A stretch of 64,000 nt of DNA from positions 1,280,001 to 1,344,000 of the forward strand of contig OZ244720.1 of the NCBI GenBank assembly GCA_965219085.1, in the 5' to 3' direction. This DNA is from Dehalococcoidia bacterium. Its GTDB lineage: Bacteria; Chloroflexota; Dehalococcoidia; UBA2979. Positions 2,169 through 54,672 of the stretch are shown here, piece after piece. The translations under genes and the position numbers were made by a program. The notes under the pieces are model-generated. The model was not told the DNA's origin. It ran no database searches and was given only the letters and a program-made list of their open reading frames with translations. How positions within the stretch are numbered: position 1 is the first letter of the stretch; every line of letters begins with the position of its first letter.

Positions 2169-3620
2169 ATGACTGCTCGCCCCGTCACCGCCGACGACGC
2201 CGAGCGCCGCTCGCCCGGGCAGCCCGGCGATCCGGCCGCGAACGGCGCACCGCCGACGCAACCGGGAGGGCCGCCGGCCAACGTCGCTCCTCCGGGCCGC
2301 CATAGCGGGCCCGGCGGCGGACCCCCGGGCGGCCCCGGCGGGCAGAACCCCGGCCTGCGGCGCACGTTCTCCGCGTTCAAGTACCCGAAGTACCGCCTGC
2401 TCTGGATCTCGATGGCCGTCGGCATGACGGGCATGCAGATGCAGATGATCGCGCAGGGGTTGCTCGCCTTCGAGCTCTCGGGCACGTTCACGGCGGTCGG
2501 CGTGCTGGCGATGGCGTGGGGCGTGCCGCAGTTCTTCTTCGCACTCCCCGGCGGCGCGATCGCTGACCGCATGGACAAGCGGCGCATCCTGCTCATCACG
2601 CAAGTGGCGGTGATGGCGCAGGCGATCGTGATCGGGCTGGCAATCACCACCGACGTGATCTCGCTGCCGATGCTGTTCGTGGTCGGCGTGTTCATGGGCG
2701 CGACATTCTCATTCAACATGCCCGCCCGCCAGGCGTTCATCCCCGAAGTCGTGCCGCGCGAGCAGATGATGAACGCCATCGCGCTCAACAACACCGCGAT
2801 GAACGCCACGCGCATCTTCTCGCCGCTCGCGGCCGGGCTCTTCATCTCGTGGTGGGGCTTCGACGTGACCTACTACATCACCGGCGCGATGTACGGCGTC
2901 GGCTGGATCACCGTCATCCTGCTCCCCCGCAGCACCGCGCACCTCAACCGTGAGAAGCGTGGCATGTTCGACGACATCGGCATCGGGCTGCGCTACGTGC
3001 GCGACATGCCCGCGCTGCGCACCTTGATGTTCATGGCGTTCGTGCCGATCCTGCTCGGCATCCCCTACGTCACGATCCTCCCCGCGTTCGCGCGCGCCGA
3101 CCTGGGCCAGGGCGAGTTCGGGTTCAGCCTGCTCGTCGGGCTGTCGGCGGTGGGAGCGCTGCTCGGCTCGCTCGTCATCGCGGCGCTCAACCCTCGATCG
3201 AAGCTGCCGCTCATCCAGAGCTTCCTCGGGGCGGGCTGGGGCGCCGGCCTCGTGCTGCTCGGCCTCGGCTCGGCGGTGTTCGGCTTCCCGGGCGCGCTCG
3301 CGGCGATGCTCCTGCTGGGCGTGTTCCAGATGGGCTACATGGCGCTCAACAACTCGATGCTGATGATGACCGCCGCGCCCGAGTACCACGGGCGGGTGAT
3401 GAGCCTCTACATGCTCACGTTCGGCATCTTCCCGCTGATGGGCGGGCCGCTCGGTGTGCTCGGCGACGCCATCGGGGGGTTCGCGACCTTCACCGTCCTC
3501 GGCGTCGCGCTCGTCGTCTTCATCGTGCTGATGGCCATCGTCGGCGGGCAGCCTTCGCTCTCGCCCCGGCGTGCGAAGTCGTCGCACGAGGGCATCGCGG
3601 AGGCGGAGGCCACCGTCTGA
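2169..3620 (+). CDS. MFS transporter (MFS_3-like) with Pro/Gly-rich N-terminus
   Basis: GGAIADRMDKRRIL motif A, PARQAFIPEVVP, about 12 hydrophobic segments; start uncertain. Confidence 0.9.
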   Translation: MTARPVTADDAERRSPGQPGDPAANGAPPTQPGGPPANVAPPGRHSGPGGGPPGGPGGQNPGLRRTFSAFKYPKYRLLWISMAVGMTGMQMQMIAQGLLAFELSGTFTAVGVLAMAWGVPQFFFALPGGAIADRMDKRRILLITQVAVMAQAIVIGLAITTDVISLPMLFVVGVFMGATFSFNMPARQAFIPEVVPREQMMNAIALNNTAMNATRIFSPLAAGLFISWWGFDVTYYITGAMYGVGWITVILLPRSTAHLNREKRGMFDDIGIGLRYVRDMPALRTLMFMAFVPILLGIPYVTILPAFARADLGQGEFGFSLLVGLSAVGALLGSLVIAALNPRSKLPLIQSFLGAGWGAGLVLLGLGSAVFGFPGALAAMLLLGVFQMGYMALNNSMLMMTAAPEYHGRVMSLYMLTFGIFPLMGGPLGVLGDAIGGFATFTVLGVALVVFIVLMAIVGGQPSLSPRRAKSSHEGIAEAEATV

Positions 3621-3644
3621 CGGCCTGCCGTGGAGTGGGCGCCG

Positions 3645-4469
3645 CTACGCGGGCTCGAAGACGAGCTGGAACTCCATCACGCCGAATTCGTCGATGGCGA
3701 GCACGATGAAGGGCCGGGGCGCCACCATCTCGTAGTCGCCAAACTGGATCCCGATCGATCCCACCACCACCACGAACCCGCCCGTGCGCTGCCCCTCGAG
3801 CGGGATCGTGACCTCGCGGGTCACGCCGTGGATGGTCAGCTCTCCGACGGCGTCCACCGTGATCACATCGCCCTCGGCGGGTACGGCGTCAAGCGCGATC
3901 GGTTGCGTCAGGGAGAATGACGCGGTGGGGTACGCAGCCGTCTCGAGGCCGCGCGTTTCCAGGGCGCGGTCGCGTCGCGAGTCGTCGCTCACGAGCCTGG
4001 TCACATCTGCCTCGATCTCGACGACGGTAATCGTCGCGCCGTCGAAGGCGAGGGAGCCGTTGACGGCGCTCGTCCGCCCGACGGCCGTCTGGACGCCGAC
4101 GTTCAGGAGCTCCTCGTTGACGCGGTAGCCGACGAAGGTCTCGCCCTCACTGGAAACGACCCACTCGCCCGTCGGATCGTCGGGCCAGACGGCTTCAGCG
4201 GCCGGCTCCTCGGTCGCGGTGGGCGTCGCGGTTGCCGCGGGCGTCGACGCGGGTGCGGACGCCGCGGTCGCCGTCGGGTCGGGCGTCGACGTGGCGGGCG
4301 CCGTCGTGGGCGTGGGGGTCGCGGTCTGCTGCACCGAACTCACCGCAGTCTCGAGACTGACGGGGGCCGGCGCGGTGTCGCGGATGACGAAGTACCACAC
4401 GCCCGCCGCGACAACGGCGACGACGACAACTGCCAGGATCGCGATGCGTGTGCGCGTCTGAGTGAGCAT
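3645..4469 (-). CDS. YceI-family membrane-anchored protein
   Basis: N-terminal TM, Thr/Pro linker, VGYRVNE, SDDSRRD, GELTIHGVTREV. Confidence 0.88.
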   Translation of the reverse strand: MLTQTRTRIAILAVVVVAVVAAGVWYFVIRDTAPAPVSLETAVSSVQQTATPTPTTAPATSTPDPTATAASAPASTPAATATPTATEEPAAEAVWPDDPTGEWVVSSEGETFVGYRVNEELLNVGVQTAVGRTSAVNGSLAFDGATITVVEIEADVTRLVSDDSRRDRALETRGLETAAYPTASFSLTQPIALDAVPAEGDVITVDAVGELTIHGVTREVTIPLEGQRTGGFVVVVGSIGIQFGDYEMVAPRPFIVLAIDEFGVMEFQLVFEPA

Positions 4470-51884: not shown

Positions 51885-52065
51885 CCGGCGTCCAGCGTAT
51901 AGCGTACCGCCGGGGTGGGTTTGAGGGGTAGGAAGCGTCACCGAACGTAACTAACCCCTGATCCACCGAAGAAGGGCGTGCGAGCGGCTGCGGTTGGGTG
52001 CTCCGCTGTAGCTGGGACAATGGGTTTTGCCGAATCACGTCACAGCCACAGGGAGCACCCATTCG

Positions 52066-53209
52066 ATGCTACCAACGAGCGACCCCGACCGGATAGACAT
52101 CGCCTTCGATGACGACCGCCTCGTGGACCACGCGGGCCTGCTGCTCCCGGCCACGCTCGCCCAGCATCTCGGTCTGCAAGAGCTCGCCGACAGCTGCGTC
52201 GACCTCGGTGACGCGCCGGGCCGGGCGAACGCCGGCGACAAGCTGCTGACCCTCATCGCCTCGGCGCTCGCGGGCGGCGACTGCATCGACGACGCCGATG
52301 CGTTGCGCGCCGGCGGGACGGCGAGCGTGCTGGGTTGCACGGTCAAGGCGCCGTCCACCCTGGGCACGTTCCTGCGCAGCTTCCGCTGGGGCCACGTCCG
52401 CCAGCTCGACCGCGTCAGCCGCGAGTTGCTCGCTCGCAGCTGGGCGGCCGGGGCGGGACCCGGCGACGCGCCGTTCACGATCGACCTCGACTCGACGATC
52501 TGCGAGACCTACGGCTTGGCGAAGGAGGGCGCCCGGCACCACGGCTACACGGGCGCGCGCGGCTACCACCCGCTGCTCGCGGTGGCGGCCGGGACGGGTG
52601 ACGTGCTGATGGCGCGGCTGCGCGAGGGCCGCGCCAACACTGCCCGCGGCGCCGCCCACTTCCTGCGTGAGACGGTGGCGCGGGTCCGCGCTGCCGGAGC
52701 GAGCGGGCAGCTCACGATGCGCGCCGACAGCGGCTTCTACAACCACGCGGTCGTCGCCGCCTGCCGCGCGCTGGATGTCCGCTTCTCGGTCACGATTCGC
52801 CAGCAACCGAACGTACGCACGCTGATCGAGGCGATCCCGGAAGCGGACTGGACGCCGATCCCGTACTGGCTGCCGGGCGGCGCCGCTGTCGCCGAGACGT
52901 CCTACACCCCGTTCCGGCACGCGAAGGACGCCAGCGCGGTCCGGCTCATCGTGCGGCGCGTGAGGCCGGCGCCCGGCTCACAGCTGGCGCTCTTCGCGAC
53001 GTACAGCTACCACGCCTTCATCACCGACCGCGCGGGGGAGATGATGGAGCTCGAGACCGACCATCGCCGTCACGCCGAGATCGAGAACGCGATCCGCGAC
53101 CTCAAGTACGGCGTCGGGCTCAACCATCTCCCCTCGGGCCGCTTCGCCGCGAACGCGGCATGGCTCGCGGTGCAGGTGATCGCGCACAACCTCGCCCGCT
53201 GGACGGCGC
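52066..53209 (+). pseudogene. IS1380 transposase, N-terminal part
   Basis: APSTLGTFL, IDLDST, GYHPLL, RADSGF, HAEIENAIRDLK.G.GL.HLPSG.F.AN. Confidence 0.9.
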
Positions 53210-53370
53210 ACATCCTGCTTCCAGGGGGCGCTGCTATCTCTGCCGCGTCCTCGATGGGACAAGTGGGTGCTCGCAGTCGCCCGTGCTCGGCATCACGTGC
53301 GTGGCTTCGTTCGCGCTCGGGTCTTCCTTCCTGATCTCCGGTCCCCGCCGGCTGAGGCGGCGCCTCCCGG
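53206..53370 (-). ncRNA. Candidate IS110/IS1111 bridge (seek) RNA region, truncated
   Basis: Non-coding region 3' of the IS110 gene; contains GGCAGAGAT identical to the element junction at 54568-54576. Confidence 0.5.
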
Positions 53371-54459
53371 CTACGCGGCCTCGCGGGCCACGGCGTGACG
53401 CAGCGGCTCGTAGACCTCCCCGCTCTTCCACAGCGCGAGCAGCAGCACCGCCAACCGCCTCGCGACGGCCACGACCGCGCGCTTCTTCGCGTTGCCCGCC
53501 CCTGTTCCCGCGTAGCGCTCACCCCAGCGACGCAGGTCGCTATCGGGTCCGAAGGGACCGAGGATGTAGTGCGCGGCCTGCACCAGCAGCCGCCGCAAGC
53601 CCGCGTCGCCGCTCTTGCCGATGCCGAGCTGCGGCGCTCGCTCCCCAGACTCCCGCTGCCGCGGCACGAGCCCGAGGTAGGCCCCCACCTCCCGGTTCTG
53701 CGGGAAGCGCCCCGGGTTCTCGATCGTCAGCACGAACGTGAGCGCGGTGATCGGCCCCACGCCGGTGACCTGGCGCAGCGCCGCGGTCTCGGGGTGGGCC
53801 TCGCACAACGCCTCGACCTCCCGCCCGGCCGCCGCGGTGCGCACGGTCAGCTCGCCAATCGCCTCCACCAGCGGCAGCAGCGCCGGGCGCAGCCCGTCGG
53901 GGATGTGGTCCGCCGTCTTGCGGTGAAAGGCCGCGGCCGTGCACGACGGCAGCGCGTCGCCGCAGGCCTTGACGGCCCCGCGCACGTGGTTGATGAGCAG
54001 CGTCCTCGATCGCACCAGCGCGTCGCGGGCGCGCACCACGGCGAGGTCGTGCTGACTCTGCTCGCTCCTGTGGCGGATCGGGGCGAGCAACTCCGGGTCG
54101 AAGCGCCCCAGCCGCGCCAGCCACGCGGCGTCGAGCCGGTCGGTCTTGCGCTGGCTGCCGGCGATCAGCGCGACCTGGCGAGGGTTGGCGACGACCACCT
54201 CATGGCCGAGGTCCGCCACGACGCGGCTCAGCCACGGCGAGCGCGGCCCCGCCTCGAGCACGACCCGCGCCGGGGAGAGGCCGGTCAGCGCTGCGCCCAG
54301 CGCCGCAGCCGCGGTGCGGACGCGCCGCTCGCGTATCACCTCCCCGCCGGCGCCGAGGGCGTGGACGTGCGTGTAACGATCGCCCACGTCGAGGCCGACG
54401 GTGATGGCGGGCCCATCCTTGCCTTCAATGCTCCGCGTCGTTGCGATATGCTGCTGCAT
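53371..54459 (-). CDS. IS110-family DEDD recombinase/transposase
   Basis: VGLDVG, VLEAG, KTDRLDA, GVGPITA, YLGLVPRQRESG, VAVARRL. Confidence 0.95.
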   Translation of the reverse strand: MQQHIATTRSIEGKDGPAITVGLDVGDRYTHVHALGAGGEVIRERRVRTAAAALGAALTGLSPARVVLEAGPRSPWLSRVVADLGHEVVVANPRQVALIAGSQRKTDRLDAAWLARLGRFDPELLAPIRHRSEQSQHDLAVVRARDALVRSRTLLINHVRGAVKACGDALPSCTAAAFHRKTADHIPDGLRPALLPLVEAIGELTVRTAAAGREVEALCEAHPETAALRQVTGVGPITALTFVLTIENPGRFPQNREVGAYLGLVPRQRESGERAPQLGIGKSGDAGLRRLLVQAAHYILGPFGPDSDLRRWGERYAGTGAGNAKKRAVVAVARRLAVLLLALWKSGEVYEPLRHAVAREAA

Positions 54460-54570
54460 GGCCGGTCTCCTACCTCGTCAAGGCTCTTCCGAGCCGCTCT
54501 TGGCCCATCGAGGCCGCTGTTTCAGGGGGCGAGTATCCCCCTTGAGGAGGAGGCCGGCCCTCATGCCATC

Positions 54571-54672
54571 TCTGCCCGGCGCTGGACCCTGCACCTCCCG
54601 AAGCGCTGGCCCTGGGCCGGGCAGTGGGCAGCCGCCCTGGCGCGGTTACGGGCGCTTCCGCTCCCGGCCTGA
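54571..54672 (+). pseudogene. IS1380 transposase, C-terminal fragment
   Basis: SARRWTLHLPKRWPWAGQWAAALARLRALPLPA-stop. Confidence 0.8.

Follow-up and report, generated by a model that had tools for sequence, protein, structure and literature searches.

What places an insertion sequence (IS) at one particular position inside the transposase gene of another IS is the question raised by a locus of a Dehalococcoidia bacterium (contig OZ244720.1). The window, which is the whole stretch of DNA that was analyzed, comprises 64,000 nucleotides (nt) and corresponds to positions 1280001-1344000 of a 3.3-Mb genome, which is assembled in a single contig. At window positions 53208-54569, on the minus strand, there is an IS1111-type element (IS110 family), here called c1, which lies antisense within an IS1380 transposase gene. 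The initial annotation of this DNA had seen in it an RNA-guided element targeting another IS, and the agreement between the predicted guides and the insertion sites supports this view, for a behavior that is in kind already known for the family. As judged from sequence comparison, it is highly probable that the c1 family is an IS1111-type IS whose 3' noncoding region encodes a bridge/seek RNA of ~140 nt.

Guides and insertion sites within the genome

The genome contains 11 near-full copies of this element (c1–c11), which are 87 to 100% identical and in all of which the transposase open reading frame (ORF) is open, coding for 361 to 362 amino acids. The complete copies have a noncoding region of 316 to 341 nt on the 3' side, compared with ~110 nt at the 5' end, and in this 3' region two 11-nt loop strands separate an inner hairpin from its outer stem (GGGCGACUGC/GCAGCGCCC). 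The left target half and the AG core recur unchanged in the 3' loop strand, and the core and the right target half are represented in the 5' loop strand by their reverse complement. There are four guide pairs among the 11 copies, each fitting the flanks of its own insertion site. In type A (c1–c3) the left side reads GGCAG-AG and the right side AG-TGGGTG, in type B (c5) these are CCACC-AG and AG-CAGCTCG, in type C (c6) CCGCAT-AG and AG-CAGCCTG, and in type D (c7–c11) TCAAG-AG and (C)G-CTACCGCC. For type C, the guide served to predict the right flank, which was then located behind four extra right-end repeats. If the other copies had been inserted at unrelated sites, the proposal of the initial annotation would have lost its basis; the copies with other guides are found to sit in guide-matching sites.

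The insertion hosts, as identified with Pfam, are IS1380, IS3 and DUF772-type IS genes and a fragment of another IS110-type gene, and the coding motifs that are targeted are '...LTHSARRW...' in IS1380, '...RPHSSLG...' in IS3, '...WASLKS...' in the DUF772-IS and '...AHQQL...' in the IS110-type gene. The type B site is a 60-nt fragment, which resembles an internal part of another IS110-type transposase gene; an IS256/Mutator-type gene ends on one side of c5 (locus L005), and on the other side a different gene of the IS110 family starts 41 nt past the c5 right end. As a separate observation, six further copies of the second IS110-type element hold CCCACCAG|CAGTTGATC internally.

Uninterrupted paralogues of the hosts provide empty sites, in which the two flanks are directly adjacent and share a single AG, while the occupied sites have AG at both junctions. 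Such sites are available for IS1380 (six), IS3 (ten, and one diverged) and the DUF772-IS (eight), and from these 24 empty sites in three host IS families it follows that the insertion adds the element and one AG, without any other duplication. The insertion orientation is constant within each site type. The joined flanks of the occupied IS1380 copies read CACCCAC-TCTGCC (IS1380 sense), in agreement with the empty site, ...CACCCACTCTGCC..., that the initial annotation had anticipated. The six uninterrupted IS1380 paralogues (at 295028, 767886, 1081575, 1803844, 2005458 and 3165482) read CACCCACTC(G/C)GC(C/A), each with one or two synonymous differences from the left guide; both perfect-match IS1380 sites (c1 and c3) are occupied, and c2 is in a site with one mismatch. 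Either the perfect sites are saturated or the mismatches are protective.

The ends of the element are in agreement with the IS1111 type. The left end is ATGGCATGAGGG..., with AG just before it, and the complete copies terminate in ...CCCTCATAGA-AG, having at both ends ATGAGGG(C/A)CGG as a subterminal inverted repeat of 11 bp. In c2, the terminal extensions are 7 nt on the left (AG+ATGGC, with the core counted) and 3 nt on the right (AGA), and for IS1111 elements the part of PMC11187229 on element ends describes subterminal inverted repeats of ~11 to 13 bp with extensions of 7 nt on the left and 3 nt on the right. Independent support for the element boundaries is provided by contigs from the RNA libraries of one study, which have the uninterrupted IS1380 form with a joint that skips exactly the 1574 nt inserted in c3 (with two ambiguous letters).

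The transposase gene of c1 (53371-54459, minus strand, 362 amino acids) is open and has the Pfam domains PF01548 (DEDD_Tnp_IS110, the DEDD/RuvC-like N-terminal domain of the IS110 family, E 1.3e-18) and, C-terminally, PF02371 (E 3.5e-19), which, together with PF13701 in the interrupted host ORF, bear out the initial annotation of an IS110 element inside an IS1380 gene. The NCBIfam model NF033542, 'IS110 family RNA-guided transposase', is matched with 232.9 bits (cut-off 140). Matches to the transposase chains of IS621 and ISCro4 are obtained with the C-terminal domain, and GLVPRQRESG in the translation corresponds to the IS1111 motif GL-P----S(T)G, which is assigned to the C-terminal domain where PMC11187229 describes it.

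The guide rule and the predicted RNA among relatives

A protein-based scan finds 80 loci in other genomes, at 49 to 97% amino-acid identity, in metagenome-assembled genomes (MAGs) labelled Dehalococcoidia/Tepidiformaceae, Chloroflexia, Acidobacteriota, Gemmatimonadota, Eremiobacterota, Myxococcota and others. These loci and the 11 genome copies make up the family test, in which the loops and ends are parsed by fixed scaffold motifs and the guides are not used; four loci are without a recognizable loop and several without one boundary. Of 60 unique left pairs, 38 show a match of the guide to its own flank that extends at least 4 nt past the core, compared with 27 of 3452 mismatched pairs; among 61 unique right pairs, a match of at least 5 nt between the guide and its own flank is found in 39, compared with 25 of 3588 mismatched pairs. 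It is this covariation of guide and flank, among copies and relatives, that places the match above chance.

An alignment of 41 of the 48 distinct noncoding regions gives a structure of five helices (a closing stem, the target-loop outer stem, the target-loop hairpin, an invariant GCAC/GUGC stem and a second hairpin), in which 92.4% of the cells are paired, compared with 34 to 47% when the partners are slid. Changes on both sides are observed for 15 of the 27 pairs, and none of 500 shuffles reaches any of the observed measures. The closing stem (helix 1) has such changes in four of its five pairs across relatives; among the 41 relatives, pairing reaches 99.2% in the outer stem (three of nine pairs changed on both sides) and 90.9% in the target-loop hairpin (three of four). 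The G-U pairs fit the transposase-sense strand, and single-sequence folds of c2 and c7 also give the target-loop module.

The second loop, after the GUGC stem, reads [GA]AU[AG]GAAG. The A/G position of this donor-loop 3' strand is the same as in the right end, CAT[AG]GAAG, in all 36 element types that could be parsed, a further 10 being skipped, and the strand is a copy of the right end and the core, in the same way as the target-loop 3' strand copies the left half and the core. The donor-loop 5' strand pairs partly with the left end (e.g., GCC with GGC and UCAU with AUGA). In the target-loop 3' strand, the two to three letters past the core are usually the first letters of the element (AGAUGG, compared with AG|ATGG), and in L019 and L068 these letters are CU and the left end starts with CT. 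These letters would explain why the repeat noticed in the initial annotation is 9 and not 7 nt long. By analogy, they may resemble the handshake guides that PMC11208158 describes, in the part concerned, for IS621.

Several observations weigh against a guiding RNA of this kind. Low scores are obtained for 22 of the 60 left pairs and 22 of the 61 right pairs, and the causes among these include internal mismatches, rearranged flanks and parsing errors. Within the genome, c4 has type A guides but lies in a diverged type D site (DUF772-IS), the right flank of c11 fails to match its guide, and the mismatch of the c2 site is in the left half. Ten IS3 and eight DUF772-IS sites match the guides and yet are unoccupied, which implies that the current activity is low or absent. 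Between the donor-loop 5' strand and the left end, the pairing (on average 3.38 of five pairs, compared with 3.05 in mismatched controls) is not significant, and Rfam gives no match at E ≤ 1 on a complete copy (L002). The protein shares 25.5 to 25.9% identity with the IS5075/IS4321 transposases over residues 21-300 (tblastn), and its 362 amino acids are slightly more than the 330 to 350 quoted for IS1111 transposases. When compared with c3, contigs from four RNA libraries reach into the gene and into part of the noncoding region and are uninformative on transcription, strand and ends, as are the stretches that they leave uncovered; in four metatranscriptome runs, only a fraction of 0.12 to 0.17 of the sampled words is present.

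The agreement of guides and flanks could also be a matter of history, if IS-in-IS composites had been copied passively or if a flank had been captured into the loop after insertion. The flanks of c7, c8 and c9 are nearly identical (zero to three mismatches in 400 nt), and these copies are possibly derived from one composite; it is also true that the causal role of the guides is here deduced from comparing sequences. However, the hosts are far more diverged than the inserts when c2 is compared with c1 and c3 and when c10 is compared with c7–c9: between c7 and c10, 25 of 400 flank positions differ and only 2 of 1360 element positions, so that at least some of the insertions are independent and not the passive copying of composites. 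The two loop strands match both flanks of a site which the insertion itself has split apart, the same rule is found in 60 unique pairs from several phyla, and in related elements a reprogrammed RNA retargets the insertion, as described in the relevant part of PMC11187229. Such a history is considered very improbable as the explanation.

Even less is to be said for the 9-nt sequence from which the initial annotation started, ATCTCTGCC, being the element's own duplicated core, a target-site duplication or a terminal direct repeat without a guide role. This sequence occurs, as noted there, exactly twice in the window (53236-53244 and 54568-54576), which by itself is not significant, since two matches are also found in nine of 100 shuffles. 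Its letters AT are indeed part of the element end: that end had been placed at 54576, but the true left end is 54569. On the minus strand, the junction copy begins with GGCAG (54576-54572), the left target half in IS1380, which is identical to the target-loop 3' strand, and continues with the AG core of the left junction (54571-54570) and the AT of the element (54569-54568). The internal copy, on the other hand, is part of a conserved internal loop ~1.3 kb from the junction, its sequence changes along with the flank in copies having other flanks, and the empty sites show that AG alone is common to both junctions, which answers the objection, raised already in the initial annotation, that the 9-mer could be simply a duplicated core. 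Equally implausible is that the 3' structure is a protein-binding or terminator element and that the recombinase protein alone picks the site, because, although the invariant motifs GACTGCG, GCAGC and GAGTGCG of the scaffold are probably protein contacts, transposases that are 87 to 100% identical use four unrelated sites and the sole systematic difference among the copies is in the two loop strands.

The preferred explanation, a guiding RNA, suggests a mechanism that is modelled on experiments with relatives, as reported in parts of PMC11187229, PMC11208160 and PMC11208158. In the complete copies, the closing stem would enclose two modules, the target loop and a donor-type loop. The RNA would be transcribed with or after the transposase gene and would bind the recombinase. 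Its target-loop 5' strand would pair with the top strand of the right target half and the core and its target-loop 3' strand with the bottom strand of the left target half and the core, so that the RNA, pairing with both target strands and with the circle junction, would direct the exchange at the core. The excised circle (right end-AG-left end) and the target (left half-AG-right half) would be joined by the RNA-loaded DEDD/serine recombinase, and the exchange at the AG core would add the element and one AG, by analogy with ISEc11 and IS621. Within this genome, the guide pair has been rewritten at least four times, each version being found in a conserved stretch of the transposase gene of another mobile element.

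A possible promoter is a separate observation, made by eye. In the right ends of the complete copies of this genome (e.g., L003, ~3040-3080) there is a conserved TTGCGG box (TTGAC(A/G) in distant relatives, e.g., L049-L091), which is located 17 nt upstream of GAAG. A −10-like hexamer, GAAG|AT, would arise only across the junction of the right end and the left end, and by analogy the box and the hexamer would fit the junction promoter described for the IS110/IS1111 families.

The truncated copy in the window and the other copies

The position of c1 (53208-54569) is defined by the copy alignment and by the empty sites. The 5' part of the host gene (52027-53207, plus strand) is an ORF with the domain PF13701 (DDE_Tnp_1_4, E 6e-47), which is also found in an uninterrupted homologue of this gene (L100), and the 3' remainder (54570-54672, plus strand), recognized by translation against the uninterrupted copies, extends from ...SARRWTLHLP... 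to the stop codon. Of the 1515-nt unit (the element and one AG), c1 retains 1362 nt, with five nt differences from c2 over this length. The left subterminal inverted repeat, ATGAGGGCCGG, is at 54554-54564 (minus strand), and its right-end partner is deleted in c1; in c2, the left end and the reverse-complemented right end agree at 10 of 11 positions of this repeat.

The target-binding loop module of c1 is complete (53226-53282, minus strand), having its outer stem between 53282-53273 and 53234-53226 and its inner hairpin at 53260-53247. Here, the minus strand reads GCGA-GCACCCACTT-GTCC-catcga-GGAC-GCGGCAGAGAT-AGCAGC, exactly as had been pointed out, and both guides proposed at that time are recognized in it. 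The 3' strand, GGCAG+AG+AT (53236-53244), contains the left target half and the core, and its last two nt, AT, are the element's own first two. The second guide, CACCCACT, is the 5' strand, CACCCA+CT (53262-53269), which is the reverse complement of the AG core and the right target half TGGGTG; the right flank of c1 itself is deleted, and AG|TGGGTG is known from the right flanks of c2 and c3, both of which are complete. In the closing stem, the 5' strand is TGCCG (53288-53292, minus strand); in the full copies it pairs with a segment just 3' of the donor loop, and this partner is deleted in c1. The segment 53208-53225 (minus strand), at which c1 breaks off, consists of a small linker hairpin (53225-53214) and of the 6 nt with which the donor-loop 5' strand begins.

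Compared with the complete copies c2 and c3, the last 153 nt of the element are absent from c1, as are 81 nt of IS1380 directly beside them. Of the closing stem only the 5' strand is left, and the donor module has been lost together with the right end and its inverted repeat; the transposase gene, the linker hairpin and all of the target loop are kept. A single deletion would explain both the lost right end and the absent IS1380 segment; after entering IS1380 by the RNA-guided route, c1 would have lost these 153 and 81 nt at a later time. The missing IS1380 segment that had been postulated is real, but its codons are L-T-H-S and not L-T-R-S; a locus of another MAG (L037), the flanks of which escaped parsing, does carry CACCCGCT as its 5' loop strand, together with the same 3' strand, GGCAGAG, and this is the variant anticipated in the initial annotation for an L-T-R-S site. 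The element had also been called intact, which is correct for the ORF of 362 amino acids and not for the element, truncated as it is at 53208. With neither the donor module nor the right end, c1 can form no circle and no complete RNA, and it is a dead, immobile remnant with an open transposase gene. By itself, c1 is an ordinary decayed remnant.

Several features of the other copies are observations in their own right. Tandem right ends are found in c3 (two, with a 59-nt unit), c5 (two, 76 nt) and c6 (five, with units up to 322 nt) and also in L039 and L076 of other genomes; the extra right-end segments each begin directly after an internal AG, twice inside the DNA of the donor-loop 3' strand, which looks like recombination of the right end with internal pseudo-sites. 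In two other MAGs (L018 and L024), the same foreign sequence follows GCGGATAG at an identical position, inside the donor-loop 3' strand, and another element may target the right-end mimic there. In c4 (L004), the first 100 nt are 94% like c6 and the sequence from approximately position 300 onward is ~100% like c2; its left end has an extra A (ATAGGC), and this mosaic is probably the result of recombination among copies after insertion. In c10 (L010, ~3016-3930) and c11, an ORF-less group II intron of ~910 bp lies on the opposite strand, with GAAAG on one side and the element's right subterminal repeat on the other (Rfam scores of 95 bits for RF02003 and 44.8 bits for RF00029), and it is the only match in the Rfam scan of c10. 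The genome is very rich in ISs; the load of its 3.3 Mb is at least nine IS1380, 11 IS3, 14 DUF772-IS and ~10 IS256-type copies, as well as six to seven copies of the second IS110 type and the 11 of the present element.

Targets in other mobile elements and comparison with known systems

What appears to be locally unusual, as read from the guides and their matching sites, is that all four guide types of the genome aim at transposase genes of other IS families. As a family-wide trait, such targeting receives no support from a crude test, which considered the longest open frame at the left junction of 20 loci drawn from the 48 loci with distinct flanks. Only one of these relatives (L039) has a transposase-type helix-turn-helix match; the remaining frames match a subtilase (L044), an aldo/keto reductase (L082) and, weakly, a domain of unknown function (DUF; L083), and 16 are without a match. 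For this genome, it is possible, although somewhat doubtful, that a young lineage with guides rewritten at least four times is an RNA-guided 'IS that hunts other IS', a specialization that goes beyond the survivorship of neutral insertions. If this is true, multicopy selfish genes would serve as safe harbors, and rival transposases would be inactivated along the way.

The rule established in 2024 for seekRNA and bridge RNA would, by sequence, extend to a distant uncultured branch, comprising Dehalococcoidia-type MAGs with relatives in Acidobacteriota, Gemmatimonadota and others. The copies make up a natural reprogramming series, in which four guide pairs are associated with near-identical recombinases and with matching occupied and empty sites. 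This series helps to define the programmable loop positions in IS1111-type systems, which are less studied than IS621, and it supplies a conserved RNA scaffold outside Rfam. Guides against conserved coding motifs of other IS families also bear on the competition of mobile elements within one genome. For the family, there are already descriptions of natural reprogramming and of elements that target other mobile elements; within the incomplete collection of papers that was searched, no paper on the present element or on guides against transposase coding motifs was found, and the scaffold of the present element may be covered by Supplementary Table 5 or the covariance models of Durrant et al. or by the supplementary figures of Siddiquee et al.

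At the level of sequence, the defining features of IS1111-type seekRNA elements that were examined are all found in the present element. In the parts of the study by Siddiquee et al. (2024, PMC11187229) that deal with ISEc11, ISPa11, ISKpn4 and ISPst6, these elements likewise have a DEDD transposase with the GL-P----S/TG motif, a long noncoding region downstream of the gene, subterminal repeats with 7/3-nt extensions and no target duplication beyond the shared bases. Their seekRNAs likewise have two short segments against the top and bottom target strands, with the complement of the top strand coming first (5') and an overlap at the crossover. The present element differs from them in its distant protein (~26% identity to IS5075/IS4321) of 362 amino acids, in its RNA, which is here known from sequence alone, in its hosts, which are Chloroflexota, Acidobacteriota and similar MAGs, in its scaffold, which has no Rfam model, and in its targets, which are coding stretches of other IS transposase genes.

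The IS621 bridge RNA, as far as it is covered in the parts of Durrant et al. (2024, PMC11208160) and Hiraizumi et al. (2024, PMC11208158) that bear on this comparison, likewise has two internal loops, for target and donor, a dinucleotide core common to target and donor, and bases past the core that correspond to the donor end in a handshake-like manner; the C-terminal domain of the IS621 transposase is homologous to that of the present transposase. In contrast to the IS621 RNA described in these sources, the present RNA would be encoded in the right end (the left end in IS621), with the order of the guides reversed and with AG instead of CT as the core. In the present element, also, one closing stem encloses both modules, and only the donor-loop 3' strand clearly corresponds to an element end.

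The third system, IS5075, is also of the IS1111 type and site-specific inside another mobile element. When the noncoding region of one IS5075 copy (L101) is inspected by eye, GGATAGATTC is seen to repeat the right end, CCATAGATTC, like the present donor-loop 3' strand, and this right-end mimic is the only shared feature seen in that region, in which the GACTGCG...GCAGC scaffold is not apparent. The target of IS5075 is a transposon end, whereas the target of the present element is a coding motif of a transposase gene.

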